Below are positions 1 to 50,954 of a stretch of DNA of 64,000 bases, in pieces. Made by a program: the position numbers and the translations under genes. This DNA comes from an uncultured virus (IMG/VR IMGVR_UViG_3300026488_000245) (taxonomy: Duplodnaviria > Heunggongvirae > Uroviricota > Caudoviricetes): the IMG/VR virus record IMGVR_UViG_3300026488_000245. One strand, 5' to 3'. The notes beneath the pieces were generated by a model that was given only the letters and a program-made list of their open reading frames with translations, was not told where the DNA came from and searched no databases. How positions within the stretch are numbered: the stretch's first letter is position 1; each line of letters opens with the position of its first letter.

Positions 1-1704
1 ATGTATGAAATTATTGAAAAATTGCCTGATTGACTAATAAAGTTAAAAAATAAAGAATGAAAATATAATTTTGTTAATAAAGAATGAAAGTTATTGAGTA
101 AACAATAGTTTGATGAATTAAGAAATTTTAGTGAATGATATGCAGCAATAGAAATTGAATGAAAATGATAGAATTTTATTAATAAAAATTGAGAATTATT
201 AAATAAAATATAGTTCGATGAAGTTTAGGATTTTTCAGAATGATTTGCTGAGGTATATATTGAATGAAAGTGATATAATTTTATAGATAAAAAGTGAAAT
301 TTTTTAAGTAAAAAATAGTTTGATAATGCTTATTCTTTTAAAGAATGATTTGCAGCTATTTATATTAAATGAAAATGATAGAATTTTATAGATAAATATT
401 GAAAAAAAATAAGTAGAATATAGTTTGATAATGTTCTTAACTTTTCTGAATGATTTGCTAAGGTTTATATAAGAAGAAAGTGATGTAATTTTATAGATAA
501 AAATTGAAAATTATTAAGTAAGGAGTAGTTTTATAGTGCTTATAGTTTTAAAGAATGATTTGCGGCTGTTGAAATCGAATGAGAATGATAGAATTTCATA
601 GATAAAAATAAAAAATTTTTAAGTAAAATATAGTTTGATAATGCTGAGGATTTTAATGAATGATATGCAAGAGTATATATTGAAAGAAAATGATATAACT
701 TTATTGATAAAAACTGAAATTTTTTAAGTGAAAAGTAGTTTGACAACGCTTAGGATTTTTCTGAGTGATATGCTAATATTTATACAAGTTGAAAATGATG
801 GAATTTTATAGATAAAAAATGAAATTATTTAAGTAAAGAATAGTTTGATTATGCTTATGAATTTTCTGAATGATAGGCTGCTGTAAAAGTTAAGTGGAAA
901 AAATAGAATTTTATAGATAAAAACTGAAATTATCTAAGCAAAATATAGTTTGATGATGCAGAAAAATTTAAAGAATGATATGCAAAAGTTTATATTGAAT
1001 GAAAATGATAGAACTTTATTAATAAAAATTGAGATTTATTAAGTAAACAATAGTTTGATAAAGTTTGAAATTTTTACGGATGACTTGCTAATGTTTACAA
1101 AGAATGAAAATAGAACTAGATAAATAATAAATGAGAAATTTTAAGCAAAATATAGTTTGATAAAATAGAATCTTTTTTTGAATGATATTCAAAAGTTTAT
1201 ATTGAATGAAAATGATGAAATTATATAAATAAAGAATGAAAAATTATAAGTAAAATATAGTTTAATGAAGTTAATAACTTTAAAGGATGATTTGCTTTAG
1301 TTTATAATGGAAAAAAATGATATAATTTTATAGATAAAAATTGAAATCTTTTAAGTAAAACATAGTTTGAAAAAGCTCATAATTTTTCTGAATGATATGC
1401 TGCTGTTTGCATAAAATGAAAATGATAGAATTTTATTAATAAAAAATGAAAAATATTATGTGAAAAATATTTTGATGAAATAGATGATTTTTTTAAATGA
1501 TATGCAGAAGTTTATATCAAAAGAAAATGATATAATTTTATCGATAAAAACTGAAAATTATTAAGTAAAATATAGTTTGATGACATTTATGATTTTTATA
1601 AAGACTGATTTCAAAAAGTTCAATATAATAAAAAATATTATTTTATTGATAGAAAATGAAATTCATATAAAAGTTTTATATTTGAAAAGTTATTTAAATG
1701 ATAA
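1..1704 (+). CDS. WG-repeat (KWG-like) protein, about 15 repeats of 35 aa
   Basis: With TGA=G and TAG=W reads MYEIIEKLPDGLIKLKNKEGKYNF...SKQWFDELRNFSEGYAAIEIEGKGWNFINKNG; 105-bp periodicity; ends TAA 1702-1704. Confidence 0.9.
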
Positions 1705-1745
1705 AAATTATAAAATAAGTTTATGATTTTTTCAATCATGAAATA

Positions 1746-2504
1746 ATGTATGAAATTATAAAAAAATTATCTAATTGATTTAAAATAATTAAAAATAAAA
1801 AATGAAAATATAATATTATTGATAAAAATTGAAAAATTTTATTTAAACAATAGTTTGATAAAATTTGAAATTTTTTTGAATGATTTTCTGCAGTTTATAT
1901 TAAATGAAAATGATATAATTTCATTGATAAAAAATGAAACTTATTAAGCAAAATATGGTTTGACGAAGTATAGAATTTTTCTGAATGATTTGCAAAAATT
2001 TTTATTAAACAAAAATGATATAATTTTATTGATAGAAATTGAAATCTTTTATTTAATCAATAGTTTGATGATATTTAGTATTTTAATGATTGATATGCAG
2101 CAATTTATATTAAATGAAAATGATATAACTTTATCAATAAAGATTGAAAAATATTAACTAATAAATAGTTTGACGACGTCTATATTTTTAATGAATGATT
2201 TGCTGCTATTTATATTGAGCAAAAATGACGGAATTTTATAGATAAAAAATGAAATATAATAAGTAAACAATAGTTTGACAGAGTTTATAGTTTTAAAGAA
2301 TGAACTGCTGAAATTTATATTAAATGAAAATGATAGAATTTTATAGATAATAATTGAAATTTAATAAGCAAATAGTAGTTCGTCGAAATTAATGAATTTG
2401 AAAATTGATTTTGAAAAATCTATTATAATAAAAAATAGTTTTTTATTAATAAAGATTGAAATATTTACAATAATTTTTTGTTTAATAAATTATTTAAAAA
2501 ATAA
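1746..2504 (+). CDS. WG-repeat protein, about 6 repeats
   Basis: Paralog of the first gene with the same N- and C-terminal caps; WFD-x4-F-x-G-F/Y-A repeats; TAA stop. Confidence 0.9.
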
Positions 2505-2536
2505 AAATTATAAAATAATTTTTTATTTTTAAGTAA

Positions 2537-3931
2537 ATGATAATGTATAAAATTGATAAAAAATTATTTAGATGAGTAAAAATAATTAAGAATGAAGAAT
2601 GAAAGTATAATTTTATTGATAAAGATTGAAATCTATTAAGTAATATATAGTTTGATAAAGTTTATAAATTTTCTGATTGAATTGCTTTAGTGTATAAAAA
2701 AGAAAAATGATAGAATTATATAAATAAGAAATGAAAATTGTTGAGCAATCAATAGTTTGATAATGCTTAGAATTTTTCTGAATGATTTGGTTTAATTTAT
2801 ATTGAATGAAAGTGATATAATTTTATGAATAAAAAATGAAATCTATTGAGTAAAATATAGTTCGATGATGCTCAATTTTTTACTGAATGACTTGCAAGAA
2901 TTTATACTGAATGAAAATGATAGAATTTTATTAATAAAAAAGGAAGAATTATAAGTAAAATATAGTTTAATAAAGCTAAAAATTTTTCAGAATGATTTGC
3001 TAGTGTTTATAAAGAATGAAAATGATAGAATTTTATAGATAAAAATTGAAATTTAATAAGTGAAATATAGTTTGACGAAGTCTAGAATTTTAATGAATGA
3101 ATTGCTGATGTTTATATTCAATGAATGTGATATAATTTTTTGAATAAAAAAGGAAATCTTTTAAGTAAAATATAGTTTAATGATATTTATAATTTTTTTG
3201 ATTGATTTGCTTTAGTTTATATTGGAAAAAAATGATTTAATTTCATTGATAAAAATTGAAATTTTTTAAGTAATCAATAGTTTAATAAAGCATATGATTT
3301 TTCTGAATGATATGCTAGTGTAAAAATAGAATGAAGATGATAGAACTTTATAGATAAAAACTGAAATTTTTTATTTAATCAATAGTTTGATAAAACTCAA
3401 AATTTTTTTGAATGATATTGAAAAGTATATATAAAATGAAGATGATAGAATTTTATAGATAACAATTGAAATTTTTTATCTAAAACATAGTTTAATGAAG
3501 TTTATGATTTTTGTGAATGATATGCTTTGGTCTATATTGAATGAAAGTGATATAATTTTATAAATAAAGAATGAAATTATTTAAGCAATGAATAGTTTGA
3601 TAATGCTTATGAATTTTTTGAATGATATGCTGCTATTAAAATAAAATGAAAAAAATAGAATTTTATAGATAAAAAATGAAATTATTTAAGTGAAAAATAG
3701 TTTGATGAAGTTTATAATTTCAAAGAATGATTTGCTCCTATTAAGATAAAATGAAAGTGATAGAATTTTATAGATAAAGATGGAAATTATTTATCTAAAT
3801 AGTAGTCTGATAATTTACAATTATTTAAAGATTGATTCTGAAAAGTATTTTATAATTGAAAACAGTATTTTGTTGATAAATATTGAAATAATTATAGTAA
3901 TTTTTTATTTAAAAGATTATTTGAAGAATAA
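2537..3931 (+). CDS. WG-repeat protein, about 12 repeats
   Basis: Same repeat; start at 2537 or 2543; TAA stop. Confidence 0.9.
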
Positions 3932-3971
3932 AATATTATAAAATAATTTTATATTTTAAAAAAATAAAAAA

Positions 3972-4520
3972 ATGCAATTAACTGTTGAAAGATTATCTAA
4001 CTGATTAGAAATAATTAGAAACGAAAGATGAAAATATATTGTTGTAAATGAATATTGAATGCCAGTAAATTAGTGGGAATTTGATGATGTTAAAAGTTTG
4101 ATTGAATGATTTGTAAGAGTTTATATTATATGAAGATGATAGAATTTTATTGATGAAAATTGAAATCTTATAAGTAGCCAGTAGTTTGATAATGCATGGG
4201 ATTTTTCTGAATGATTCGCAAAAATATATATTGAGTGAAGATGATAGAATTTTATAGATAAAAATTGAAATTATTTATGTAGAGAATAGTATGATGCTGC
4301 ACACGAATATAAAAACTGATTTGCTCCTGTTTATATTGATTGAAAATGATAGAATTTTATAGATAGAAAATGAAATCTTTTAAGCAAATAGTAGTTCAAT
4401 AATTTTGTTGAATTTAGAGATTGATTTTGAAAATTTTATCATTATGGCGAATAGTATCCTGTCGATAAAAGATGAAATGTTTATAATGAAAAAATATTTA
4501 AAAAATTATTAAAAAAATAA
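3972..4520 (+). CDS. WG-repeat protein, about 4 repeats
   Basis: Same repeat and caps; TAA stop. Confidence 0.85.
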
Positions 4521-4562
4521 AAATTGTAAAATAAAAATTATTTTATTTTATTTTTTTTAGTA

Positions 4563-5210
4563 ATGTACAAAATTATTGAAAAATTTTTTAATTGAATAAA
4601 AAAAGTTAAAAATAAAAAATGAAAGTATAATCTTATCAATAAAAATTGAAGATTATTGAGTAAAATTTAGTTTGACAAAATCTTATATTTTTCTAAATAG
4701 TATTTTAAAGTTTATATTAAATGAAAATGATAGAATTTTATTGATGATAAATGAGAATTATTAAGCAAACAATAGTTTAGTTTTGTATAGGATTTTGAAG
4801 AATGATATGCAGCTGTAAGAAGTAAGCAGAAATGATAGAATATTATAAATGAGAAATGAAAATTTATAAGTGAGCAATAGTTTGATGGAATCTATAATTT
4901 TTCTGAATGATTCGTAAAAATTTATGCTCAATGAAAATGATGGAATTTTATAGATAAAAATTGAAAGATATTAAGTAAAAAATAGTTCATTTCTGCTTAT
5001 AACTTTCATGAATGATATGCAGAAGTATATGAAGAATGAAAATGATAGAATTTTATGGATAAAAAATGAAACTATTTATCTAAATAGTAGTTTGATAGTC
5101 TTATTGAATTTGAAAATTGATTCTGAAAAATTCATTATAATAGAGAATAGTATTCTATTGATAAGAATTGAAATATTTTTAGCGAATATTTGTTTAAAAA
5201 AATATTTTAA
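4563..5210 (+). CDS. WG-repeat protein, about 5 repeats
   Basis: Same repeat and caps; TAA stop. Confidence 0.85.
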
Positions 5211-5256
5211 AATTTATAAATTATAAAATAATATTTTTATTATTTAAAATTAAAAA

Positions 5257-5802
5257 ATGCGCAATTTTACTAGCGTATCAGATAATTGAATAAAAACAGT
5301 TGTAAACAAAGAATGAAAATAGAATTTTATTGATAAAGATTGAAATCTTTTGAGTAAAAAATAGTTTGATTATGTTTATAGTTTTAAAAACTGATTTGCA
5401 CTTGTTTTTTTTGAATGAAGATGACGGAATTTTATTGACGAAAAATGAAATTATTTAAGTGAAATATAGTTTGATGAAGCATAGAATTTTTGTTGTTGAA
5501 TTGCAATAGTAAAAATTGATTGAAAATATAATTTTATCAATGAAGAATGAAAATTATTAAGTGAAATTTAGTTTGATAGAGTTTATAGTCCCTATGAATG
5601 ATTTGCGAGAGTCTATATTGAATGAAAATGATATAACTATATCGATAAAAATTGAAAATTTTTAAGTGAAATATAGTTTAGAAATGCTAATAATTTTGAT
5701 GAATGAATTTGAGAAATTTTTTATTATAGAGAATAGCGTTCCATTGACAAGAATAGAAATATTTATAGTAATTTTTTAACAAAAAAATTATTTAAAAATT
5801 AA
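5257..5802 (+). CDS. WG-repeat protein, about 4 repeats
   Basis: Same repeat and caps; TAA stop. Confidence 0.85.
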
Positions 5803-5838: not shown

Positions 5839-6609
5839 TTAATTATTAATTTTTTTAAGAACTATTATTAACCTTTTTTTATTTGAAAACAAAGGATAAC
5901 AAGTAACTAAAACAATTTTATCTTTCCAACTTAAAAACCTATCTTTAAACTGTTGTTTTGTTAAAACAAATTTATTTACTACTTTATAACTATCTTCTAT
6001 TCATTTTTGTATATCATATAATTTAACTATATCTCATAATTTTAATTTATAAAATTCTCTTCAAATATTTAAAATAGGTTTTCAACTAGAATGAGCAAAA
6101 ATATATAATGTATTATTAGAAATATCATAATATGGAGCAATTGATATGCTTTCTAATTTTTCATTAAATTCTTTAATATTATTTAATTCATTAACATGAA
6201 TATCAAAAGTTTTTCATTTTATTTCTATAAAATCATATATTTTATCTAACTTTGAAAAATTATTTTCTATCTTTATTTTTTCTTTATCTTCTCTCTTATT
6301 TTTTCTCTTATCCTCTTTCTTATTTTTTATTTCTTCATATTCTCTTTTAAATTTAAAATTTTTATATTCTTTTACTATTAATTCATTTCACGATTTATAA
6401 TATATATAAATCGGTTTATAAGAAACATATTTATACTCATCTTCTATAACATATATTTTTTTTTCTATCTTAAAAATTATAATATTATTAAGTATATCTG
6501 ACAAATCAGGAAAAAATCTATAAATTACTTGAAGTCATATAATAAAAGAAATATAAAAAAATACTCATAAAAATATAAAAAACATTATATAATCTATAAC
6601 TTTTCTCAT
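5839..6609 (-). CDS. Sortase family protein with N-terminal membrane anchor
   Basis: YIFAHSS (catalytic His) and IVLVTCYPLFSNKKR (LxTC and Arg); hydrophobic N-terminus. Confidence 0.8.
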
Positions 6610-6637
6610 TTTTTTACAAAAGTTAAAATTAAATTTA

Positions 6638-7678
6638 TTATCCTGTAATGGTAGGATATAAATCAGCTAGTAAATTAAAAACTAATTTTATTTTTTCTTT
6701 ATATGCTTCATGAGGAACATCATAATCAGAAGAAGGATATTTTATTAATTCCCATAAATTATTAAGCAATATATCAAACTTAACTTTTGCGTCTTCATTT
6801 TCAGTAAAATTAAAAACAGAATCTCTAAATTTTTTAACAAAAATATATATTATTTTTAATATCATAGTATTATAATTGAATCAACAATTTTCAAACAAAA
6901 AATTTATTAATTTTTCTTCATATTCTTTTCTTTTTTCTAATAATTTTCATTTTTTTCATAAAGTAAAGAATTCATAAGATCATTTTAAAAATTTTAATTC
7001 TCATATAGCTCAATAAAAATTAATAATTCAATTTTCTTCAAAAACTTTATGAATTGTTTTATCTAACTCTTTTCACACATTTTTTAATTCTTCTAAATTT
7101 ACTTCTTCTCATAATTTATCTAATAATTTTGCATTTTTCAATATATAATTATAAGATACTATTAAATTTCATAAAAGATTAAAGAATATAATATAAAAAA
7201 AAACTTTCTTATGTATAATTAATTTTATTTTTGCTTGTTTTAATTTAGTTAATAAAGAATCATAATCTTTTATTCATATTCTTTTTATTATAAAATAACT
7301 ATCTTTTATTTTTTTATTAAAATATTCTTTTTTATTTTTATTTTCATTTAAGATTTCTATCATATAATCTATTATTTTTTCTATTACAAACATTTTATCT
7401 TCATTATCTGTATCAAGGTCTATTTTTTTGTTCTTTTTTATAAGTTTTATAATTATTTTTTCACTATAATTATCATCTTTTTTTCCGTTATATAATAACA
7501 TATAATCATTAAAAACATCTTTAATTAAATATTTAATTATTTCTATTTCATTATATAATTCTCAAAATAATTTTCATTCTATTCAAGTATAATCGCTAAA
7601 CCTTATAAATTTTTCATCTTTTTGAAATAAATAATTATTCAAATTAGTAAATTCTTTTCTACTTTCATTTTTAAGCAT
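6638..7678 (-). CDS. Hypothetical protein (346 aa)
   Basis: Joins in-frame ORF-track fragments 7274-7501 and 6638-6865 through TGA=Gly. Confidence 0.7.
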
Positions 7679-7805
7679 GGTTTTTAGTTTTTCTATATTA
7701 AAATAAAATAATATGTTTAAAATATAGTAAATAATATAGAAATATAAAAAGTTTAAAAAGAAGTTTCAAATAAATATTGGATTTTTATAATTACATTTTT
7801 TACAG

Positions 7806-9854
7806 ATGCTAAAATCAAATACTGAAAATAATAATAATTTAATAAAATTATCAGTTTTTTTTGATAAATTATCTGCTTTTTGATTATGAGAATTAAAAAG
7901 AAAAATAGAGGAATTAGAACAAGAAACATGAGAAAGGTATTTTATAAATAAAGAAATAGCAACTGAAAGTTTAATCAAATTTGCTCTTTTAGGAAGTCAA
8001 GAAATTATAGTTTCTGAATTGCTTAAAATTCTTAAAAAATATATTGTTATATTAAAAGCACACAATGAACATAATGATAATTCTACGAATTTTTTGCAAT
8101 TGAAAATTTTTGAAGAATTAGAAAATTATTTAATAGAAATTAAAAATAAAAGTTCTAAAAGTATAGAATCTATAACAGTTAAAGATTTAGTTGAAAAAAA
8201 AGAAAAATTAAAATTATGAAAATTTAATTTTTTAGAAAAAATAGAATTAACAAGACTATGAAATGCATTTGTAGTATGATGAAGAACATGAGTTTGAAAA
8301 ACAGCTTTTGCTATGAATTTTATTGATGATTTAATTTTAAATGAAGAAAATATAAGTATATTATATTTCTGAACACAAGAAATTGATGAAGTTAAATTTA
8401 TGGAAAGATTTCTAATTTATAAATGATGAAGAAAATATAAATTTAAATTAAATAAATTAGAAAATTTAATAGAATATAAAAAAATCATAAATACTTTAAT
8501 TTATAATTCAAACAGATTACAAAAATTAAAAGAAATCTATATTAATAATTTTATAAATCAAGTTACCAATAGTTTAAACGTAAGTAATATTGAAAATCTT
8601 TATATTTCATTACATAGAACTTTGAATGAATATATAACATCTTTTATTGAATTTTATAATATAAAAACTAATGAAGTAAATAAAGAAAGACTAAAAAGCA
8701 TTTTAGAATCTTATAAAAACCAGATTTATCAATATTATTTCACTTTTTTAAATAAAGTTGAAAAAATATATAATGTATTTTTCATATTTGAATCTTTATT
8801 TGAATTATTGTGAATGATTAATTGATTAGACTGATTAAAAACTATATTGTCTAATTATCATAATAAGTTTAAAGAAATAAATAAAGATTTTGATAAATTT
8901 AAAAAAGAAGATTTATTATTAAAAGAAGTAAATGAAAAAATAAAATTATTATTAGAAGATTCTGAAAATAAAGAAATTATTAAAGAAAAAATATTAGAAA
9001 ATTCGTTTTTAAAAGATATTGAACAAATTAAAGATATATTATTAGAATATAAAAACAATTTAGAGAGTTATTTTAAAAATAAAGATAAAAATGAACTAGA
9101 AAGCATAATTGTAAAGATGAAAAATCTTTTTACAAAACTTTTAGAAGAATTAAATGCAAAAATAGAAGAAGAACAAAAAGAAATAGATGATATTTTAAAT
9201 GAGATAAAAGAATATCTATTGATTAATGATGTTAAAATTTATTCAAACTTGAATGTAAAATTTATAAAGCAAATGGTAAGAAAAAAATATTATGAATGCA
9301 AAACTGATAATAAAAAATTAGTAGTAATAATTGATTATTTAAATGAAATTGATTATTGAAAATCAATGACTGAATATGAAAAATCATGGAGTAATTGAAA
9401 ATTATTATTAGAATTGACAAGAAAATATAATGTATTTGTTTTATGATTAATTCAAACTAATAAAATTAAAAATGAATTAGAATCAGAGAGAAGTGATTTA
9501 AGATGATGAGAATGAGTAAAATTCAATATTGATTGATATTGAGTTATAGAAGATAGAAGTTATTGATATCATTTAACAGAAAATTGATTATCAAAACATG
9601 AATTAAACTTTCCAATATATGAATTTTGGATTAAAAAAAATAGGCACTGACCACTCTCTAAAAAATACTATATCTTTGATAAAAATATGATAAATTATAT
9701 TCCTATTAATAATGAAATTGAAGTAGAATTGCTTGATAAAGATAAAAAGAAAGAAATAAAATTTAAAAAACAATTAGAAGAAGCATTTGAAAACCAATTA
9801 GAAAAAAGTATTAAAGAAAAGCAAAATGAAGAATTAAATGAGTTAATTATTTAA
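7806..9854 (+). CDS. dnaB: Replicative DNA helicase, DnaB-like, with a large internal insertion
   Basis: Walker A GGRTGVGKTAFAMN (~8278), VVIIDYL (~9327), GLIQTN, IKKNRHGP. Confidence 0.8.
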
Positions 9855-9913
9855 ATTATTTATAATAAATTGTTTTATTTAAAATAGTTTTTTATTTACT
9901 AAATATTAATAAT

Positions 9914-10543
9914 ATGAAACTAAACGACATTATAGAAAAAAAACCTATAAAAGAAAATTGAGACCCAAAAAAAGAAAAAGAAATAATAAATTATTTTTTA
10001 AATGAATATTATAATGCTATAAAAACAAAAGATCTTACATCTTTTGAAGAAGCTCTCAGAAAAGTAGATGAAAATTGATTAAATTTAGATATTGATGAAA
10101 TAGAAGATTTGTTCGCTGATTTTAATAAAAATTTAGTAGAATTTCAAAACAATAATATGCAAGATATAAATGAATTACTTAAGATTCTTCAAATTGAAGA
10201 CTATAAAAACGTAATTAATGATGTTAGAAATAAATTAAAAGAAATAAAAAGCAGAAATTTTTTACTTAAATCAATTATATATAATATTCTTATGTTAATA
10301 GAACCTTATAAATATAAGTATTTTGCTTTAAAAGAAGAAATTCATACTGAAATTTATTTAAATAAAAGAATGGAAGATAAATATGTTAAAGGTTCTGTTA
10401 TTGATTCAGAAGTTAAAAAATATTCTGAATATAAAAAATTTCATTTTTTTGATAGAGCTTATAAATTAACAGAAAAATTATTTGAACAAGTGAATTCTAT
10501 TTATTTCTTGATTAAAGAAATAGAGAGTTATTTAAAAGAATAA
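9914..10543 (+). CDS. Hypothetical helical/coiled-coil protein
   Basis: ATG 9914 is in frame with ORF-track 10109-10543. Confidence 0.7.
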
Positions 10544-10604
10544 TAAAATTATTTTTTGCAAATATAATTCATAATTAAAATTATTTATATTAAAAAATAA
10601 AAAT

Positions 10605-11648
10605 ATGAAATTAGATAGTAAAATAATATTAACTTGAGATAGGCCAACTTGAAAATTACATATATGACATTTTTTTTGAAGTTTAAAAGAAAGATTAAAA
10701 CTACAAAATGAGTTAAAAAAATGAGATGAAATGTATATTTTAATTGCTGATATGCAAGCATTAACAGATAGAAAAGATAAGGAGCAAATAAAAAAAATAA
10801 AAGAAAATATATATGAATTAATGACAGATTATTTATTAATTTGATTAGATTATACTAAAGTAAATTTTGTTTTACAAAGTCAAGTACCTGAAATTTCACA
10901 TATATTTTATATATTCAGCTGCTTTACACCACGCAATTATATAGATGTTCATATACCGCAAGTTAAGCAAGAAGCAAAATTAAAATGAAATAAAAATATT
11001 TCTTTATGATTTTATTTACATCCTATACATCAAGCAGCAGATATATTATCAATTTCAGAAGCTTGAAAAACTATCTATGTGCCAGTTTGAAAAGACCAAA
11101 GCTGAAATTTAAATTATGCTAAATATATATCAAAAAGAATAAATAATATTTCTTCGCAATTATGAAATTGAAAAATATTAAGTGAAGTAAAAGAAATATT
11201 TTGAGTATCAGAAAATATTAAATGATTAGATTGAAAAAAAATGAGTAAATCATTATGAAATGTTATTTATTTAAGAGATTCAAATAAAGATATAGAATAT
11301 AAAATTATGAAATTGATGCCTATTTGATATGATTATAATCAGAAAAAACCTTTAAATATTGAACTATTTAATCAATATACAGAGTTATTTTTTGATAAAG
11401 AAGAAGCAGAATTTTATAAAAAAGAATATTTAGAATTCAATAAACTTCATATAAAAACTTTTAAGAAAAAATTAATAGAAAATATAATCAACTTCCTTGA
11501 AGAAATAAAAATAAATAAAAAAATATTAAATATGAAAGAAGAAGATAAAAGAAGATTTATAGATTTATTAATCAAATTCTGAACAGAAAAATATAAAAAT
11601 AAAGCAATTAAAACTTTAGAAAGATTAAGAAAGATTTTTTCAATTTAA
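10605..11648 (+). CDS. trpS: Tryptophan--tRNA ligase (divergent)
   Basis: ILTGDRPTGKLHIGHFFGSL (HIGH), IADMQALTD, QAADIL, VPVGKDQ, GLDGKKMSKSLGN. Confidence 0.92.
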
Positions 11649-11689
11649 TTAAAAATTTTATATATTTTATATATTATTAAATCATTTTC

Positions 11690-11720
11690 AAAAGTATAAG
11701 CCATAATGGCTTATACTTTT
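11690..11720. terminator. Intrinsic terminator hairpin downstream of trpS
   Basis: AAAAGTATAAGCCA-TAA-TGGCTTATACTTTT perfect inverted repeat followed by a T run. Confidence 0.8.
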
Positions 11721-11914
11721 TTTTATAAAAATTTTATATTTATATATTTACAAAATATTTTTTAAAGAATAAAAAATTTTTTTTACTTTTTTAAAATTTT
11801 TATTAAAATTAAATTATATGAAAATTTTTAAATCTTAAAAAAATTTTTTACTTTTTAAAAATTTTAATTAAAATAATTATATAAAAAACCTTTTAAATCT
11901 TAAATAATTAAAAA

Positions 11915-12544
11915 ATGATAAAGAAATTAAAATTTATTTTTAAAAATTTTTGAAGAAAAGAAGAAATAGAAGAAAATAAATTAGAAGAACTTTTTAGTAA
12001 AAGTTCTAGTATTGATAATGTTGATGACGTAAATATGAATAGTAATATCATAAATAATGTGCATTATAATAATGATGGAAAAAAAGAAAAAGGGTTAAAA
12101 AAACTTTTAAAAAGAATTTGAATTATTATTATATGAATATTTATAATTTTGTTGTTGATATTTGCATATAAATGAATAAGGAGTTTTATAAAGGAAAAAG
12201 AGAAAGAACAAATAAAAAATATGTTAATAAAAATAAATGAAAGAGGAAGTAATTATTTAAGTGAAATTGAAATGAATTATGTTAATTTAAAAATGTTATT
12301 AAAATGATGTATTGACGATTGAAATAAATATATAAAAATGATTGATGAAGATATGAAAAAAATTGAGAATATGAATGTATCAGACTTCAATTTAACAGAG
12401 TTTAGTTTAAATATTTTAGATTCAGAAGAAATGAAGAAAAATAAAATCAAAATAATAAAAGAGAAATGCGAAAAATTATTAGATGTAGTAAATGAATTAG
12501 ATGAAAATACATTAAATACAAAAAATATAAAAGAAAATAAATAA
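11915..12544 (+). CDS. Hypothetical single-pass membrane protein
   Basis: Hydrophobic segment IGIIIIGIFIILLLIFAY; in frame with ORF-track 12338-12544. Confidence 0.7.
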
Positions 12545-12577
12545 CTTTAATTCTTTATATTTTTATAAATAAATAAT

Positions 12578-12832
12578 ATGTTCACAAATATAAAAGAAAA
12601 AATGAATGAATATAAGAAAATAAAGAAGAAAAAAAATTATCTTCAAAATAATCGAAATAATTTTAATAGAAAAGAGGTAAAAAAATTGATAGAGCAGGAA
12701 GATGAAATTAGAAATGAAATTATTGATGAAATTGTTAATATTGCTTGATGATTCATGATAATTTTAGGAATGATATTAATAATTTTATGATTATCAATTA
12801 TATTAGTTCATCTTTTATTAGCAAATATATAA
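12578..12832 (+). CDS. Small membrane protein
   Basis: Basic N-terminus, C-terminal hydrophobic helix, TAA stop. Confidence 0.6.
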
Positions 12833-12860
12833 AAAACAATAATAAAAGCAATATTAATTA

Positions 12861-12890
12861 AAAAAGCTGGAGTTTCAACTCCAGCTTTTT
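12861..12890. terminator. Bidirectional intrinsic terminator between convergent genes
   Basis: AAAAAGCTGGAGT-TTCA-ACTCCAGCTTTTT. Confidence 0.85.
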
Positions 12891-13479
12891 ATTTATTTAA
12901 ATCTTCCTTTTTTATATAATTTCAATTAATTATTTTTCATTTTCTTTTTTCTAATTCTGTTAATACATTATTTAATATCTAATCAAAAGGTTCCATATAT
13001 CTATCAGCTAAATATTTTAATACAAAAAATATTTCTTCTATTATATTTTTAATTTCATCTTTTTTCTCTTTTAAATCACATTTTAAAATAATTTCACTTA
13101 ATCTTCATAAATTTTTTCACATTAAAATTTCTTTGTCTATAAATATCAATTTATCAATTTCTTTTTTTCAATCAAGTAAAATATTATAATTTGGCTTTAT
13201 ATTAACTCAATATTGTTCTTTAATAATACTTAATAAATTGATTATTGCTACCACTATATCTCATAAACTATCTAAAACTATATTGTTATTCTTAGTTATA
13301 ACTCAATTACAATATTCTCAATATTCTTCTATTACTTTTAAAACTTGTGCTTTTATATCTCATTTTTTAGGAATATCTCTTTCATATCACCGTTTAACAA
13401 ATTTTTCAATTATTTTTTTTAAACTATTCCTTTTTCCTTTTTCTTTTTCTACTTTAGAAGCTCTTTTTTTTCTTGTCAT
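12889..13479 (-). CDS. MazG-like (phage-type) nucleotide pyrophosphohydrolase
   Basis: VK(CGG=W)GYERDI...AQVLKVIEEYGE...LDSLGDIVV and C-terminal ELEKRKGKIINGNYIKKEDL. Confidence 0.75.
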
Positions 13480-14978: not shown

Positions 14979-16433
14979 ATGAAAAAAATAAAAAGAATAT
15001 TAATATTATTTTTTTTATTTAGTTGAGTTTTATTAACTTCTTGGTGATTTTTCAATATTGAAGCTAAAAAAGATGATTCAGAAAGAATAAAAAAAATTAA
15101 CAAATTATATTTAAAATTATTTAATTACTATTATTATTCAGGAATTGAAAATCAAAGTTATTATGCTTGAATAAAAAGAGAATTAGAAATATTAGAAAAA
15201 AAATATAAAACAATAAATAATTTTTTAAAAAAGTATGAAGACAAAATAGAAGATGAAAAAAAGAAAAAAATTTTAGAATTAATTAAAAAAATAAATAATT
15301 TAGCATATAATAAAGTTAAAAACAAATACGAAAAAAATATAAAAGAAATAGAAGAGAGAAAAATAAGAAATTTAATATCAACTTATTATATATACAAGAA
15401 TAATAATTTCTTTATGAATATATTAAAAAATTATAAAATAAAAAACAAGAAGGAATTAATATATAAAAAATTACAATACAGCTGAGTAAAAATTGATAAA
15501 AGACAATTTAATGATTTCAGATTATTAGAAAGAAGCATTAATTTTTCTTGAATAAAATTAATTATTAAAAATGATGGTTATCAGTTATGAACTTGATTTT
15601 TTCCTTATGTTGTAAAAATTTCTTCGATTGTTTGAATAAGATATTTGAATTGAAGACGTGATTATCATATGTGATGGGATTTAGCATTATCTAACTTACC
15701 AAATGAAATTAATTATAATTGTAAAATATTAAGAAATGCAAAACTAAAAAGAAAATATAAAAATTTTATCACTCTTTCAAATTTTAAGAAAGAATACTGT
15801 AATAAAAATAATAATATTAAAGATTTAATTAAGAATTATAAAAATATTTACAATATTTATATTAAATTAGATAAAAATTTTTGAGAGAATTTTGATTGTT
15901 ATATATGAAAAAATAGAAGTATATATAATCAAAAAAGATATGTATGATTTTGATTATTTTTAATGTGTATTTCAAAAGATAAAACTTATGGTTTTATAAT
16001 GTGACATAATGATATAAATAATTTTTATCTTCTTTCTAAGCAATGAATATTAGAAAAAATTAATAATGAATTTGAAAGGTTTAAACTAAGTCTATATACT
16101 TCTTACTTTTATGAAAGAAATTGGTATTGATTCAATTCTAAATCAGTGGAATGGAAAAATAAATATCAATTATTTTGATATTGAAAAGTAAATATGAATA
16201 ATGAATTTTATAAAATAAATTTTAATAAAATTAAAAATTCAATATTAATAAAATATGGTAATTCTTGATTCAGTTTTTGAAAGCATATACATTTTGGTAT
16301 ATTATTAATTGATTGAGATATTGTAAAATTGTTAGATAGTAATTATATATTTGAAAAAACAGTTAAAAAATTGTTTAATAATAATAGAATAAGTTTATCT
16401 AATAATTATTATTTCTTTTTCTCAAACAAATAA
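14979..16433 (+). CDS. Secreted M23-family metallopeptidase (expanded)
   Basis: Signal peptide; GIRYLNGRRDYHMGWDL (HxxxD), MGHND, GNSGFSFGKHIHFG (HxH). Confidence 0.75.
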
Positions 16434-18154: not shown

Positions 18155-19342
18155 TTAATAAGAAATTTTTTCTAAAAATTCTTTTAATTTGTTTCATACA
18201 AAAATTTTATCTTTAACTAATTTTTTTCAATAGTCTATAATCAAATTTTTATTTTTTTCTATTTTTTTATTAACTTTTTCTTCTAATTCTGAAATCATAA
18301 TTTTACTGAATTCTTTTAAATCATTTTTAATTGAATCAACATTTAATATATTTCAAATATTGTTAGGATTTATAACTATTCATAATTTTAATTTTTTTCA
18401 GTCTTTGGTTATATATTCAAGGTTATTTAAAAAGAAAGAGACTGCTAAATTGGTTGCTCTTTCATAATCATTAAATGCTCAAGTAGATATATCTCATAAT
18501 ATTATTTTTTCAGCAGCTCTTCATCATAATAATTCTTCTATTTCTTTAATATAGTCATTTTTTGTTCTTAATAATTTATCGTCATCTTCTGCATTAATAG
18601 AAAAAGTTTGTCATAAACTCATATTTTTTCATCATATAGCTACTTTTAATATTTCTTTTCAATTAATATATCAAATAACTGCATGTCCTAATTCATGAAT
18701 TGCAATCCTGTATAAAGTTTCTTCATTTAATTTCAATTCTTTTTCTTTTCATAAAATAAATTCTTCAATACTATCAAAATAATCATTAAAATTAAAATCT
18801 TCAAGAATTAAATAATAATTTAAAATCATTTCTTTTATTTTTTCTTCTGAAACTTCATATTCAATAATTTCATTAATTTGTTTTATAACTAAGTTTTTTG
18901 TAACTTTTTTATATATTTCATTTATATCATTTATAATTTTATTTTTATCTTTTAATTCTTTATTTAATTTTCTTTTAATTAAAATTTTAGTAATATTTTT
19001 TATATCTCTTCATGAAAATCAATCAGTTAAATGTGCTATTTTTTTAAATACATCTCAATAATTATTTAGAATTATGTATTTAATAATATTTTTTCAAATA
19101 TCTATATTTAACTTTAATTGAATTTTTGTAATTTGATAAATCATAAATTTATCCCTATTTAAATATCATTTATATTTATTTCATAATCTTAATTCATTGT
19201 TTATAAATTCTGAATATATTTTAAATAATTTATATAAAATCAAATGGTAAATTAATTCTTTTTTATCTATTTTAATTTTATTTATGTTATTATCAAATTT
19301 ATTAAATACATTATTTATTTTTTTTATTTTTATTTTTTTCAT
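18155..19342 (-). CDS. ftsH: FtsH C-terminal part: AAA lid plus M41 zinc protease
   Basis: IAHLTDGFSGRDIKN, RIAIHELGHA (HExxH), LLGGRAAEKII, STGAFNDYERATNLA. Confidence 0.85.
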
Positions 19343-19343
19343 A

Positions 19344-20882
19344 TTAAAAGTTTAATAAATTAAAAATAAATTGATTTAATAGTATTTCTTCTCTTTCTTC
19401 TCTGTTAGGTAGTCAAACATATATTTTATAATCAAATCTAGATAATAAAGCATCATCTAAAGTTTCATATCTATTTGTAGCTCATATAACAATAAATTTT
19501 TTGTTTTTAAATCAGTCAATTTCTGTTAATAAAGTATTTAACCCTTCAGCAGTTGCTTCGTGCGATTTAACTCTTTTTATTCAAATAGAATCTAATTCAT
19601 CGATAAAAATAATTCAAGTTTGAAATCATAATCTATTTATATCTTTTTGTATATTTCTAAAAACCTCTCTTATTTTTTTTCAAGTGCCTCAATAATACAT
19701 TGACTTAAAATTATTAGAAGAAATATAATAGAAAGGTAAATTTAATTCTTTAGCAATTTTCTTTCAAAATAAAGTTTTTCATGTTCATGGTGGTCAATAT
19801 AATAATATTCAATCAAAAAACTTATTTAATACTCATTTTTTGTACAAAGTTTTTATTTCATTTAGTATTTCTAATAAATGCTTGTTGCCTCAATAATCAA
19901 CAATCTCATCGTCATATTCTTTTCTTCATGGGATATATTTAATCAATCAAGTATCTTTTATATCTGTTATTCATAAAGTCAATGCAAACTTAAGAAAATA
20001 AAAAAATATTCAAATCATTAAAAGATTAAAAATAATTTTTAATATATTAGAAAACGAATAAGGTTTATAAACTAATGAATTATAATTAACTAATAAATTA
20101 ATTAAATCAATTCAAATAAATTTTAGTACATTTCATAATTCTTTATAATATTCAATTTTAAATCAAGAAAAATTATTTATTTTATTTCATAAACTATCAT
20201 TATTTAATAAATAAATGTTAATTTTTCAATTTTTTATTTTTAAATAAAAATTTTTTAAATTATCAAAATCTTTTTTCAATTCTTCTTTTTCTTTTTTATT
20301 AAATTTTATTATAAGAACATTCTTCAAATCACTTAATTTTTTATTAATATTCTTATATGAATTTAATATTTTTTCAATATTTATATTTTCTTTTTTTAAT
20401 TCATTCTGGTTAAAAGAAAAATATCTTATTAAAAATTTTTTTTGGTAAACTCAAATTATAATTTTTCAAGTTTTATATCAATTTTCTTTTAAATAATTAA
20501 TATAACTTGATAAATTATCAAATTTAACAATATTATCTAATTTTTGTATCTTATTTTTTTCATTTTTTTTATCAACAAAATAATCTTTTAAGTTAACTGA
20601 AGGAGAAAAACTAAGATTTAATAAATATCAAAAAAATAAAAATATAAATCAAATAAGCAAATACAAAGGTTTAAATTTAAAGTGAATAGATTTATTATTT
20701 TCTCAACTAAATAATTTTTTCTAAAAATCAGATGCAAGTCATTTCAAATTTTCATTAAATTTTTTTGATATATATATTTTAGATAAGTAATATCATATAA
20801 AAAAGAAACCAATACTTAATAAAAATAAAAAAAGTTTTATAAAATATATAATTATTAATTCATTCAAAATTTTTTCTATCAT
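19344..20882 (-). CDS. ftsH: FtsH N-terminal part: TM segments plus AAA ATPase core
   Basis: ILLYGPPGTGKTL, IFIDELDSIG, LNTLLTEIDGF, GATNR..LDDALLSRFD; ends at TAA 1 nt before the next ATG. Confidence 0.85.
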
Positions 20883-21074
20883 CAACTTTTAATTAAAATA
20901 AATAAATTTTTATTAAAAATTAATATAGATAAAAATTAATTTTTATTTATTTTTTATAAAAAATATTAATAAAGATTTATAAAAACAGCAAAATGTTTAA
21001 TTTAAAACAAAAAAATAAAAATACAATTTTTAAATAATAATTTGATTTTAAACTTACAAAAAATAAAGTGACAT

Positions 21075-29380: not shown

Positions 29381-32300
29381 TTAAACTATTTTTTTGTTGA
29401 CTATTGATTCAAATTTCTTGGTCAAATCTTTATCATTTAATACTATTGCATTTTCTTTTGAATATAAAATAGTAGGTGGTATATATAATTCAAATATACT
29501 ATTAATTGAATTAGTTCATTTTAATAATAGCATTAATTTATTAGCTTCGTCAATTAATCAATTAATTTTTGCTATATTTCAAGTATTATGTCTAATTGTG
29601 ATTGTGAAGAATTCTTGTGGATAGTATAATTTTAAATATCACATAATAAATGAAATAAGACTATAAGCCATACTATGAGACTTATTAAATGCATATCATG
29701 CAAAATTTATAATGTACTTTTCAACATATTTTCTAAATATATATTCATTTACTCAATATTTTTTAATAAAATTTTTCAAAGCATCATTAAAAATTTCTCT
29801 TATTTTCTCTCATTCTTCTGAATTATCATTTAATAAATGAATCTTTTTTCTTAATGTATCTACTTTTTTAAAGTTTATTCAAGATAGAGCAAAAAAATTA
29901 ATAATCTGCTCTTGATAAATATAAGTATTATAAGTTACTTTTGTTATATTTTTATGTATTTCATCTAATATTTTTATCGTTTTTTCAACCTCTTCTCTAT
30001 TGTTTATCTTTTTATCAAATTCTTCTAATTCTTCTTTATCAAATAATATAAACTCTTTTATTCAGTGTTTATAATTAGCAAAAGTAGGAATAAATTGCAT
30101 TGGTCAAGGTCTGTATAATGCTGATACTGCAGAAAGGTCTTCTATATTTGTTGGTTTAATTAATTTTAATGTGTTTTTAATTCATTCAGATTCAAATTGA
30201 AATATAGAATTAGTTATAGCATTCTGAAAAATTATTTCATATACATTTTGTACTTCTTCACTTTTTTCATTAACTTTGTCTAAAAGTTTTAAGTAAACGT
30301 TTCTCCAATAAAATTCGGTAGCTTGCCAAAGTTGTTTTTTGTCAGTAAATTTATTTAATTCAGGTGCATATAAATTTCTTTCTTTTTCTCTATTAAATAA
30401 TATTGTTTGTATAATTTCTTTAATTATTTGAATAGATTCTAGACTAAGAAAATCATATTTAATTAATCATAATCACATAATTTCTTTTTTTTCTAATTCC
30501 GTTATATATAGTGAAGAATTAACATCTTCTCTAAGTCATGTAAAATTATATAAATCATAGTTTGATATAACTACTCAACAAGCATGAACTCATAATCCTT
30601 TTGCTTTATCTAAGAAATATTTTAATGAATTGAAAACAGGTTTAAGAATATGCCAATATTTTTTTATATATTCTTTTCAAGAATCAGAAAGTTTTTCTAA
30701 TCATTCTCAAGTATCTATATAAGTTTTTATAAGTTTATAAATTTTTTCTCAAGGATTAGATTCATCTTCATCTATATAATTTTTGTATAAGATTTCTAAA
30801 TCTTGTGAAATTATATTTAAAATTTCAAAATCTATTCATGTATTTCTTGATAATTCCTTAAAAGCTGATTTTATTTTCATAGTCAAAACTGTTCAAATTT
30901 TAGCAACTCTATTTTCTCAAAATCTTTTTTTAACATAATTATATATTAAAGTTCTATCTCAAAAATCTACATCAATATCAGGTAAAATATCACTATCTTC
31001 TAATTCTTCGTTATCATAAATAATTCATTTTTCTTTTCTTTCTTCTTCAGTTTCAGCATAAAATATTTTTTGCGGTTTATAAATATGAATCATTCTTTCA
31101 AAAGAAAGTTCATATAGTTTAGGGTCAATATCAATAATATTTAATAAATAAGAAATTAATACTCATCATGCACTTCATCTTGATGGTCAAACAGCTACAT
31201 TATTAGTTTTTCAATAATTTACATAATCAGAAACTACTAAGAAATATGACGAATATCAAAGAAAAGAAATTACAAAATATTCATATTCAAATTCAATTAA
31301 TAAATCAGATAAATACCATTTTTTTGTATGTGTTGTATTCTCATAAAGAAAAACATTAGAAAAAATATTAATAAAATCTAAATTTATCTTTGGTTTAATT
31401 ATTTCTAATAAAGAACTTTTAGAAATATTTTCTCATCATTTTATTTTCTTTTGAATCTCAATATAATCATTTATATAATTTCATATAGGAAATAAATATT
31501 CTATAAAAAGATTTAACATTAAATATTTAACTTTCATATATTGCTTTAATAAAACACTTTTTTTATCTTCTTTAATTTTATTAATCTTTTCTATTTCATC
31601 TATAATTGTTTTAATTTTATTTTTCAATTGTTCATCTTTTATGCTTTCTAAATTTATTTTTTTAAAATTCTTGAATAAATAAATAAAATATCTATTAACA
31701 ATTCATCTAATTCATAAATATCTCAGAATAAAATCGTCTTTTTCTTTAAATATATCTTTATATTTTTTATATAATTCTTTTATATAAGAGATTTCTTCTT
31801 CAAATCATAAATTATAATCAAAAATTCAAGTATAATATGAAAGCTGAATATCATTTTTAACAATTTCTTCAGAAAATACTCATTTTTTATATCATAATAG
31901 ATGTTCTTTTATGTTGTCTATATCAAATGATTTAATATCTAATCTACATACAAAATCAATCTTTTTTGATAATTTATTAATATTCAATTTTTCTCTATTT
32001 TCTTTTTTGTTAAGTCATCTTTTTATAAATTCAATTAAATATTTTCTAAAAAATAAATAATATTTTTGATTAATTAAATAAAATTTTTCAAAAAAGTTTA
32101 AATTTATATTGTTTATTTTTGTTAATTTATAATATTCATTTAATAAAGTTTTTAAATTATTATCTTCTATCTTTCTAATAAATTTTTTATATAATTCGTC
32201 AATACTAATGTTATCCTCAATCTTAAATTGATTAATTAATTGTTTTCAATCAATTATTAATTTATTATATTTACTTTGTTTTATAAAAGAATTATAAGTA

Positions 32301-33424
32301 AAATAAAATAAAATAGTTACTAATAAATTATAATCTTCAAAAATTTTATCTAACTTTTCTACAAACTTATTTATATTGTTTTCATTTAATTTTTCTATTG
32401 AATTTAAATTTAATAATTTTAGATACTCATAATTATTAACTAAATATCTAAAGCTTTTATATACAATAAGATAATTTATTAAATTTGCAGCTAAATTTTT
32501 TATATTTTTTATATCTCAGCTACTTTTTATTTCTATTTCTTCTATTAGTGTTTTGCTTGCAGTTCATAATTTTAATAATTTTAAATATTCATTTTTTAAT
32601 TCAAAAAATTTATTTAATTTTTGTTTTATTTCTTCTTCGATATAATATTTTTTTGATTTTTTTCATAAAGTTTTATCTAAATATTTTCAAAGATTATTTA
32701 TAAAATTAGTTTTTCATTGAATAATTTGTCAAAATAATTTGTACATTTCTCAACAAAACGAAAGAAAACTTTCTATAATATTATCAAATTCTTTTTCTTC
32801 AACATCAAGATATAAATGAAAATAAGAATTCAATATATCTATTTTTTGATTTAAAATATTTTTAAAATCATTTAAATATATTAAATAAGTTATAAAGAAA
32901 TAATAGAATAAATCAGATTTTTTATTACCTCAAGCTGTATAATTTATAAAGGAAATTAATAATGAATTTAAAAATAAAAATATGTTTGTTATTCATTCAT
33001 TTATATTTAAATAATAATCTTTATTAATATCAACATTTTTATAATTGTTTGAAATAATATTCTCATAAATTACTTCGCTTATTCAAGCAACAGGAAAATA
33101 AAAAAAGTTTAAATTAGTTTTTCATCAAAAAATATTTTCATATTTTTCTATGTCATTTTTTGTCAAAATAGGAATATTTACATTTGCTATGTATCAAGAA
33201 TCATATTTTGTAAAATTAAAGTTTCATTTACTTATTGCTTCATTTATATCTCTTAATTTTTTGTTAGTATCAATAATATATCTATTTCAAAAAATATCAT
33301 TAATAAAAAATAATATTTTTCATTTTTTTGCTTCTTTAAAAATTCAAGTAGTCTTATTTTTTCAAATAATATATTCTCAATTAGGAAAAATTAATCATAA
33401 ATCATATCTTGAAGAAATTATCAT
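29381..33424 (-). CDS. dnaE: DNA polymerase III alpha subunit, N-terminally expanded and C-terminally truncated
   Basis: VGPSRGSAGG, PDIDVDF, GVHACGVVI, KYDFLSL, FQFES, SALYRPGP, YQEQI, FAGYAFNKSHS; start and all checked motifs share one frame. Confidence 0.88.
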
Positions 33425-36063: not shown

Positions 36064-36843
36064 ATGATTATTGAAAACAATGTAAAGAAAAAATTATATG
36101 ATATTTTCTTTTTAAATTCATTTAAAGATAATTTAAATGCTTTTATAGAAGATGTTTATAAAAGATTCGATTATGCTGATATTTATAAAATTAACGAAAT
36201 AAGTAATGATAAAGAGAAATTTATTATTACTTATTTATATTTAGTAAAATCAATATATAAATTAAGAGCAATATTATTAGATAAATTTTTATTACAAAAA
36301 TATCATGAAAAAGAATTAAAAACTTGATTTTTAATTTTATTTATTTTTTTAATAAATATTTCAAAGCATTTGCGAAAAATTATGAATATAAATTTATCTA
36401 AAGAAGAAAATCATTTCGTAGAAGAATTAACATCTGATTTGTTTAATTCATTAAATTTTAAAAATATAAATTCAGAAAAAAATAATATTTTTAAAGAAAA
36501 TATAAAAGAATTTATAAAATTTTATATAGCATTTAGATTTTCAAAACTAAAGTTATATTATTGAATTACAACTAAAAATATTTTTGATGAAAATAAAATA
36601 AAAGAAATAGAATATAGTTATTATACAATTAATAAAAAATACGAATTATTGATTACTATTTTAATGAGAATATTAAGAATTATCAAAATAATCGAAAAAA
36701 TTAAAATTATTGATTTTTACGAATATATATTTAAGAATAAAAATAAAGATAATTATAGTTATAAAAAGATTTTTGATGATATAATTGATATGTTGGTTTT
36801 TTATTTTTATTTAGAAGAAAATCAAAATTATTTCTCTAAATAA
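36064..36843 (+). CDS. Hypothetical protein
   Basis: Three in-frame ORF-track fragments joined through TGA=Gly. Confidence 0.7.
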
Positions 36844-37799: not shown

Positions 37800-37804
37800 A
37801 AAAA

Positions 37805-38962: not shown

Positions 38963-38999
38963 ATTTGTTAGATTTAAAAAATAAAAATATATTAATTTT

Positions 39000-39689: not shown

Positions 39690-39736
39690 CTTTTATTATT
39701 TAACATATAAAAATTTACTTTTTAATAATATAAAAA

Positions 39737-43458: not shown

Positions 43459-43576
43459 ATTTTAATTTTTTTGTAATTAAACGTTTATAAACAGAATTTT
43501 AATATTAATATAGAATATTGTAAAAAAATAATATTCTATATTAATTAAAAATATTTATTTATTTTTTAGAAAAAAT

Positions 43577-48316: not shown

Positions 48317-48440
48317 ACTTTTTTAAATATCGATATAAAAATTATTTTATTATTTAAATGAAAAAATAAAAATTTTTAATTAAAATATAATAATTTCTTG
48401 TTTTTATAAAAATTATTTAAAAAATAATTTTAATAATGTT

Positions 48441-50070: not shown

Positions 50071-50071
50071 T

Positions 50072-50953: not shown

Positions 50954-50954
50954 A

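Follow-up and report, generated by a model that had tools for sequence, protein, structure and literature searches.

The window analysed here is the whole of a 64,000-nucleotide stretch of DNA from an uncultured virus record (IMG/VR IMGVR_UViG_3300026488_000245), and the gene in question is its trpS, which encodes a bacterial-type tryptophanyl-tRNA synthetase (TrpRS; coordinates in Table 1). Under translation table 11 the frame carries 19 interruptions, all of them TGA, and under table 25 it forms one open reading frame (ORF). In a MAFFT alignment of the window TrpRS with 203 homologues, 12 of the 19 TGA codons fall in columns where glycine is the commonest residue, nine of these columns being at least 96% glycine; the remaining seven are located in insertions or variable columns, and tryptophan is the commonest residue in none. 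GGN codons are absent from the gene, which holds eight AGA, one AGG and one CGC. A terminator-like hairpin with a T run stands 42 nt past the stop codon, one being found against 0.1 expected from shuffles.

By its sequence and its structure model, the product is a real and complete bacterial-type TrpRS. The Pfam family PF00579 (tRNA-synt_1b) covers residues 7-299 at 159.6 bits (1.4e-46; gathering threshold 21.1), and the nine best NCBIfam matches are all trpS models, each scoring under its own cut-off. The AlphaFold2 model, built from 94 sequences, has a mean predicted local distance difference test score (pLDDT) of 94.6 and a predicted template-modelling score (pTM) of 0.91. Its fold is that of TrpRS, with a Rossmann domain, CP1 and a C-terminal helical domain, and the top 50 PDB matches in Foldseek are all TrpRS, the best being the C. 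trachomatis enzyme (6ncr) with a template-modelling (TM) score of 0.84. The GxDQ segment (residues 162-165) and the AADIL helix (144-148) are present, and the columns of A145-D146-I147 in this specificity helix are at least 90% conserved; the Asp in the D146 region is the residue that we take to bind the indole nitrogen. With the catalytic core and the tryptophan-binding helix kept, the enzyme is predicted to be active.

A sequence-only reading of the locus had described the HIGH and KMSKS motifs as intact, and they are (H19-H22; K212-S216, followed by LGN). It had also counted no TGG, TAG, CGA or CGG codon in the gene and reasoned that trpS can be translated without amber decoding, and all four counts are indeed zero. 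The lack of CGA and CGG is uninformative, because the two together make up only 16 of the 20,700 codons counted in the window, so that none is expected in 347. A Trp-free composition as an adaptation to the code is ruled out, as all 118 next-best homologues (P0004-P0121) also lack Trp and the composition is the norm of the family.

The window has a G+C content of 17%. TAA is its only stop, and TGA encodes glycine: the share covered by ORFs of at least 100 amino acids rises from 10% with table 11 to 72% with table 25, and to 96% when TAA is the sole stop. Codons were counted in 51 non-overlapping ORFs. TGA is found in every one of them, with 972 TGA against 95 GGN, and TAG lies in-frame in 31, with 176 TAG against 41 TGG. 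TAG almost certainly encodes tryptophan, as judged from alignments. In the dCMP hydroxymethylase homologue (T4 gp42, 1b49; 2.8e-68), all three TAG codons stand at Trp, as do its two TGG, and in the staphylococcal-nuclease homologue (1kdc) one TAG stands at the Trp of LNIWSEN near the C-terminus. In the WG-repeat ORFs at the left end of the window, the Trp column is written with 21 TAG, 15 TAT, 12 TGA, 2 TGG and 2 CGG, and a second repeat column with 41 TAG and 1 TGG. CGG probably encodes tryptophan as well, standing at Trp positions in three of seven cases, two in WG-repeat ORFs and one in the TagF-like ORF, at the Trp of YAPTWR in 3l7i. For CGA, the window offers no informative position. As to their own make-up, the six tandem paralogous WG-repeat ORFs use TGA for about 10% and TAG for 4-5% of their codons, and the first 4 kb show a G-over-C skew of 0.55.

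The use of TAG is uneven. It is missing from 20 of the 51 ORFs, eight of which write TGG only (23 TGG), and a chi-square as high as the observed one arises in 0 of 20,000 permutations. These TGG-only genes lie scattered among TAG-rich genes, with overlaps on the same strand, and trpS itself sits within a run of six TAG-free genes. Recent import of the TGG-only genes is ruled out, since their G+C content is not atypical; the GalE-like gene is the exception. This UDP-glucose 4-epimerase has 27% G+C (z = 3.6), 17 GGN against 22 TGA and a plant-type match (8wop, 5.8e-105), and is probably a recent transfer undergoing recoding.

The way in which a bacterial TrpRS reads its tRNA is seen in the 2025 co-crystal of E. 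coli TrpRS with tRNATrp, which is drawn on here in part (PMC12135181). The anticodon is read by the loop Arg222-Ser227 of the C-terminal domain. Lys274, Thr225 and Asp226 bind O2, N3 and N4 of C35, respectively, A36 is bound by Ser227 and the Thr225 backbone, and C34 is held by the backbone of Tyr270/Gly271 only. At the acceptor end, Glu155 makes two hydrogen bonds with the discriminator G73 (N1 and N2), on which Gln152 stacks; E155A reduces activity, and the two residues are called strictly conserved in bacterial TrpRS. The same source assigns binding of the indole nitrogen in bacterial TrpRS to the Asp of the specificity helix.

In the window TrpRS, the segment after KMSKS reads ...YKIMKLMPIGYDYNQKKPLNIE, which HMMER aligns gap-free to 6ncr and 2a4m. 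The first column of the Thr-Asp dyad, at position 239, holds Thr in 184 of the 203 homologues, Pro in the window TrpRS and Lys in its one close relative, P0003. At position 240, Asp is found in 176 of the 203, and Ile in both the window TrpRS and P0003. The dyad is followed by a four-residue insertion, modelled as the first strand of a β-hairpin (strands 241-243 and 248-250; pLDDT 97, residue blocks 231-250). This new loop is conserved between the window TrpRS (P0001) and P0003 to the same degree as the remaining protein. Because it is shared by the two members of the clade and confidently modelled as a hairpin, the loop does not look like decay. At the G73-reading position, where 96% of the homologues have Glu, the window TrpRS has Asn170 and P0003 has Gln; HMMER places N170 opposite the Glu of 6ncr and 2a4m. 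By contrast with these replacements, both proteins retain Lys287 (its column is Lys in 182 of 203), which by conservation and spacing probably corresponds to E. coli Lys274. The tRNA-binding helices also keep their basic residues.

The clade that carries these changes comprises the window TrpRS and P0003, both compared as sequences, and Thr, Asp and Glu are all absent together in just 2 of the 203 homologues. Among 66 columns conserved at 85% or more, ten are altered in both clade members (99, 119, 139, 167, 170, 179, 183, 239, 240 and 279), and these cover three of the four conserved columns that hold published identity-reading residues (hypergeometric P = 0.0096, post hoc). On the alignment, the published tRNA-identity readers (of C35/A36 and of G73) are specifically replaced in an otherwise sound TrpRS. 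The sequence-only reading had noticed an altered segment after KMSKS, which is borne out by the Pro-Ile and the insertion, and had assigned reading of the CCA anticodon to the C-terminal domain, in agreement with the match of this loop to the E. coli reader of C35/A36. Its view of the helical domain as divergent is apt as a description and fails as a mark of something exceptional. The window TrpRS is on average 43.5% identical to 195 homologues over the N-terminal part and 27.9% over the C-terminal part, and 2,141 other homologue pairs of the same N-terminal identity average 42.0% and 28.6%, with 45% of the pairs at least as divergent; an unusually divergent helical domain is ruled out by this comparison. 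Its placing of the enzyme in a recoding machinery gains from TAG as a sense codon aligned with Trp and from CGG at Trp positions; the part that concerned CGA finds no informative position.

Compared with E. coli TrpRS, the likeness consists in the fold (Foldseek TM 0.72-0.77), the HIGH, KMSKS, GxDQ and AADIL elements and the conserved Lys of the C-terminal helix. The differences are Pro/Ile for Thr225/Asp226, the insertion and Asn for Glu155, at an identity of about 22-23%. The position of E. coli Gln152 is Gly in the window TrpRS and Pro in its subgroup. This subgroup, formed by 6ncr, D. radiodurans TrpRS II (2a4m, 1yi8) and T. maritima TrpRS (2g36), has a C-terminal loop of the form ...YTDP...PG..EGN... 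and gives the best matches (6ncr at 1.5e-45), and its length and Trp-free composition agree with those of the window TrpRS. The YTDP and the Glu are retained throughout the 6ncr/2a4m/2g36 subgroup, whereas the window TrpRS and P0003 lack both.

The apparent Trp codons UGG, UAG and CGG correspond to anticodons in which neither position 35 nor position 36 is constant. In E. coli, tRNATrp(CUA) is not recognised by TrpRS and is charged by glutaminyl-tRNA synthetase, as stated in passages of PMC2965240, citing Yaniv et al. 1974. Position 34 does not need to be discriminated by E. coli TrpRS, and codes in which UGA is Trp change position 34 only, according to the sections drawn on from PMC12135181. 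Since a standard bacterial TrpRS rejects CUA, a code with TAG as Trp requires an altered TrpRS. Since the Trp-like codons vary anticodon positions 35 and 36, a TrpRS minus the readers of those bases is what such a code requires.

We consider it somewhat probable that the gene encodes the active TrpRS of an Absconditabacteria-like organism of 17% G+C, rewired or relaxed to charge an amber-decoding tRNATrp. In the proposed mechanism, Trp would be loaded on tRNAs whose anticodons depart from CCA, CUA doing so at position 35 and CCG at position 36. The Thr-Asp dyad that hydrogen-bonds C35/A36 would have given way to Pro-Ile and a four-residue insertion forming a new hairpin, and the Glu that hydrogen-bonds G73 to Asn. 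The reading of identity would in this way be rewired or relaxed, and the enzyme would charge the amber-decoding tRNATrp. We infer a change of tRNA specificity through the substitutions, the existence of a tRNA(CUA) and its charging by the window TrpRS. The exchange of Glu for Asn or Gln hints at a shifted identity set in the partner tRNA, perhaps with another discriminator base; as a speculation, adenine would be a chemically suitable partner for the side chain of an amide residue. The fuller proposal, of an undescribed bacterial code in an Absconditabacteria-like lineage in which UGA is Gly, UAG is Trp, CGG is probably Trp and UAA alone is stop, and in which TrpRS and tRNA(CUA) form a natural amber-suppressor pair with a new identity set, is put forward tentatively, as plausible yet rather less than probable. 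The literature search returned no report of TAG as Trp in a bacterium or phage, and none of a bacterial TrpRS without these tRNA contacts.

The window TrpRS is isolated among known proteins. A word-indexed search of 5.8 billion protein clusters gave 7,998 scored candidates, of which the best, P0002, is the product of this same trpS, from an 87,337-bp contig, stored with Trp at all 19 Gly positions. The sole other close relative, P0003, is 59% identical, derives from a 3.2-kb contig and has its Gly written almost solely as TGA; beyond it identity falls to 44% or less. In an exhaustive HMMER search of 1.84 billion cluster representatives, the protein's own cluster is followed by a match of 164.7 bits and 39-40% identity. 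With residues 222-347 (126 aa) as the query, nothing but the window's own protein was found among 682 candidates. The nearest unnamed homologues, such as P0004, carry a Cys motif that the window TrpRS lacks. A search of genome contigs gave seven loci of 29-33% identity, from Caldisericota and others. Metagenome contigs gave 80 loci of at most 42% identity, all of standard code by ORF coverage, with peptide patterns containing Gly, which the window lineage writes as TGA, so that members of the clade were unable to match. Viral contigs (IMG/VR) gave 0 matches for the exact window-end stretch and 0 for a clade-specific degenerate pattern, and among 36 GenBank phage records none exceeds 43.5% identity to the window TrpRS. 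In the public collection, P0002, P0003 and the relatives P0272-P0275 of the window's RadA are all translated with TGA as Trp, each Gly being shown as Trp. The lineage is thus mistranslated in public databases, which misleads family and structure tools, and its TAG-containing genes would be truncated.

One indication of the origin of the window comes from RadA. Its relatives descend from 90% through 51-53%, 48% and 46% identity to the named Absconditabacteria, with Ca. Vampirococcus lugosii at 46%, Ca. Absconditicoccus praedator at 44% and an SR1 genome at 43%, and the use of TGA declines along this ladder. The placement rests on this one gene, ranked by identity. A RadA profile run against IMG/VR viral contigs gave four loci, the best at 37%. 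No named Absconditabacteria TrpRS is found among the best 120 matches, though named Absconditabacteria RadA rank high; from this disparity trpS appears to be either very fast-evolving or not vertically inherited. Besides the possible source run, a sequencing run labelled as hydrothermal vent metagenome contains 58% of the sampled words of positions 9900-12600, and no RNA sequencing run is listed as containing that stretch. A cellular, Absconditabacteria-like origin of the window is likely; a lesser though substantial prospect is that it stems from a large phage, or from another element, of such a host. The predicted task of the TrpRS is the same under either origin.

Several points weigh against a rewired, amber-charging enzyme. 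ARAGORN finds 0 tRNA genes in the 64 kb, as does Rfam at E up to 1; at a relaxed threshold of 80%, ARAGORN makes 26 calls of low score, which fall within coding sequence, include no CUA anticodon and are taken as noise. A second, ordinary trpS may lie outside the 64-kb window. The TIGR00233 trpS equivalog model scores 169.4 bits and does not reach its cut-off of 176.75. Some of the aligned TAG codons stand opposite residues other than Trp (Val, Pro, Tyr, Leu/Glu and Tyr/Gly; Table 1), all in variable columns. The E. coli numbering was placed solely through spacing and the TD(S/P) and DQxQHxE motifs, which are unmistakable in the alignments, and the enrichment was tested post hoc, on no more than four columns. 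Seven of the ten altered conserved columns have no known tRNA contact, and some loss of conserved residues is expected from extreme AT-richness and fast evolution. These last points lend themselves to a drifted housekeeping TrpRS of the ordinary kind, changed by fast evolution as extreme AT pressure acts on a reduced genome, that still charges tRNATrp(CCA) via other identity elements, TAG being decoded through another synthetase copy, tRNA modification or near-cognate reading. The 17% G+C of the window, the equally derived replication proteins (a DnaE without detectable PHP domain, a DnaG with the zinc finger only) and the ordinary overall divergence of the C-terminal domain are also consistent with drift. 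Thr and Asp are both absent from 14 of the 203 homologues, but many of these have unrelated C-terminal sequence in the alignment. Drift does not readily account for changes at three of the four conserved tRNA-reading columns, for a new loop kept across proteins just 59% identical or for unaltered catalytic motifs, and the organism needs Trp on its TAG codons; we regard it as unlikely.

Another explanation assigns the enzyme to a phage or mobile element of a code-25 host, as an auxiliary code-switch synthetase that turns TAG to Trp for part of the genes. The TAG-free trpS would be expressed first and would charge a phage suppressor tRNA, in parallel with the TrpRS, release factor 1 and suppressor-tRNA module of Jade phages. 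A dCMP hydroxymethylase 57% identical to T4-like phage enzymes, a MazG-like gene and the matches of DnaE to phrog_405 (7.6e-104) and of TrpRS to phrog_37857 suggest such an element. The strongly uneven use of TAG and the lack of foreign composition in the TAG-free ORFs also agree with it, as does the position of trpS in the six-gene TAG-free run: in the parts of bioRxiv 10.1101/2021.08.26.457843 drawn on here, the code-change genes of recoded phages avoid the recoded stop, and a TrpRS has precedent in a phage code change. However, the PHROG matches of 37 ORFs (64 kb of the 87-kb contig) include no family of capsid, portal, terminase or tail proteins. The ten-gene teichoic-acid/glycosyltransferase cluster and the sortase, FtsH, RecJ-like, GGDEF and YdjM genes look cellular, RadA grades smoothly into named Absconditabacteria, and nothing related is found in IMG/VR and nothing close in GenBank phages. 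At 36828-39692, TAG-free genes overlap end to end with TAG-rich ones of the same strand, a poor fit to early and late blocks. Pfam matches of 50 window ORFs include no release-factor family, and no suppressor tRNA lies near trpS within the 64 kb. On balance, we hold an auxiliary phage synthetase to be improbable. Far more improbable is a TrpRS paralogue put to a non-canonical use, such as antibiotic resistance, regulation or service as an enzyme partner in the manner of D. radiodurans TrpRS II. That enzyme is among the best PDB sequence matches (2a4m, 5.6e-39), the score lies under the trpS equivalog cut-off and tRNA-reading residues are lost; but TrpRS II itself retains the YTDP loop and the Glu, the window TrpRS keeps all catalytic and Trp-binding motifs, Lys287 and the basic residues in its tRNA-binding helices, and no partner gene is found nearby.

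Known recoding systems resemble the proposed amber-charging TrpRS in part. Portions of two reports describe bacterial stop-codon reassignments for UGA only (PMC8629427, PMC13695967), and in the part of bioRxiv 10.1101/2021.08.26.457843 concerned with phages whose code is unlike that of the host, the changes seen are TAG to Gln and TGA to Trp alone. The TGA-recoded Jade phages described there share a TrpRS gene free of the recoded stop and a stop read as Trp. Their codon is TGA, for which the UCA anticodon alters position 34 only, whereas TAG alters position 35. They also have a suppressor tRNA and a release factor, whereas neither is found beside the window trpS, for which a cellular origin is more likely. 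With the Absconditabacteria code, in which UGA is Gly and CGA/CGG are predicted to be Trp (passages of PMC8629427), the window shares TGA as Gly, CGG at Trp in three of seven cases, rare CGN codons and a RadA closest to that of named members. That code stops at both TAG and TAA, whereas the window makes frequent use of TAG as a sense codon (176 of 20,700 codons), and the G+C of the window is below the 21-53% given for those lineages in the same passages. The engineered amber pairs of yeast TrpRS and tRNATrp(CUA) perform the same task of placing Trp onto a CUA tRNA without cross-charging (parts of PMC2965240). They rely on a CUA-tolerant enzyme taken from a eukaryote, whereas the window TrpRS would be a natural bacterial-type enzyme altered at its anticodon loop.

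Other features of the window are listed in Table 1. The dCMP hydroxymethylase suggests either hydroxymethyl-cytosine DNA or a phage-derived island, and the downstream ORF that overlaps it has no family match. FtsH is seemingly split into an AAA ATPase and an M41 peptidase with an 8-base overlap, which reflects a genuine split, a frameshift or a fault of the assembly. Among the replication proteins, the DnaE-like protein has 1,347 aa with about 700 unmatched N-terminal residues and no detectable PHP domain, DnaB has a long central insert, and DnaG has 720 aa. Gene orientation and GC skew converge near one point, with plus-strand genes to its left and minus-strand genes to its right, and the region looks like a replication terminus. 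The envelope cluster of ten genes contains two GT2, GINT1-like, GT4, TagF-like glycerophosphotransferase, FkbM methyltransferase and GalE genes, together with a TarI/TarJ-like fusion (IspD and short-chain dehydrogenase).

Table 1. Features of the 64,000-nucleotide window, in order of position; features given by PDB match only stand last.
Feature	Position	Strand	Remarks
Six WG-repeat ORFs	1-5802	+	PF14903, up to 10 scored repeats
WG-repeat ORF	1719-2504	+	CGG at Trp position
WG-repeat ORF	5254-5802	+	CGG at Trp position
Run of six TAG-free genes	5839-12544		includes trpS
DnaB	7806-9854	+	TAG-free; 2 TGG
trpS	10605..11648	+	347 aa with TGA as Gly; ATG to TAA
HIGH motif H19-I-G-H22	10659..10670	+	G21 encoded by TGA; H19 invariant in homologue alignment
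Asn170	11112..11114	+	column of E. coli Glu155 (G73 reader)
KMSKS motif K212-M-S-K-S216	11238..11252	+	sequence motif; LGN follows
Pro239-Ile240	11319..11324	+	columns of E. coli Thr225/Asp226 (C35/A36 readers)
Insertion G241-Y-D-Y244	11325..11336	+	G encoded by TGA; GYNY in P0003; gap in 202 of 203 homologues
Lys287	11463..11465	+	conserved Lys column
Terminator-like hairpin with T run	11690..11720	+	past trpS stop
Convergence of gene orientation and GC skew	~12500-12900		looks like replication terminus
TGG-only gene	14979-16433	+	TAG-free; 4 TGG
FtsH, seemingly split	18158-20888	-	
M41 peptidase part of FtsH	18158-19351	-	
AAA ATPase part of FtsH	19347-20888	-	
DnaE-like protein	29381-33424	-	TAG-free; 4 TGG
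ORF overlapping dCMP hydroxymethylase	37805-39016	-	TAG-free; 9 TGG
dCMP hydroxymethylase homologue	39003-39692	-	TAG at Trp, 3 of 3
DnaG	41299-43461	-	zinc finger only detected
Envelope cluster	48384-57645		ten genes
TagF-like ORF	52864-54051	-	3l7i: TAG opposite Pro; CGG at Trp position
GalE-like ORF	56548-57645	-	8wop: TAG opposite Tyr
Staphylococcal-nuclease homologue			1kdc: one TAG at Trp, other at Val
GT2 glycosyltransferase			2z87: one TAG at Leu/Glu, other at Tyr/Gly

In conclusion, TAG as Trp is a mechanistically awkward reassignment: CUA changes C35, the base gripped most tightly by bacterial TrpRS, and the E. coli tRNA so changed turns to glutamine identity. If the proposed reading is true, the window TrpRS would show a synthetase co-evolving with a codon reassignment and would identify residues that set anticodon and discriminator specificity. 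Genetic-code expansion might also gain from it a ready-made Trp amber-suppressor pair of bacterial type.

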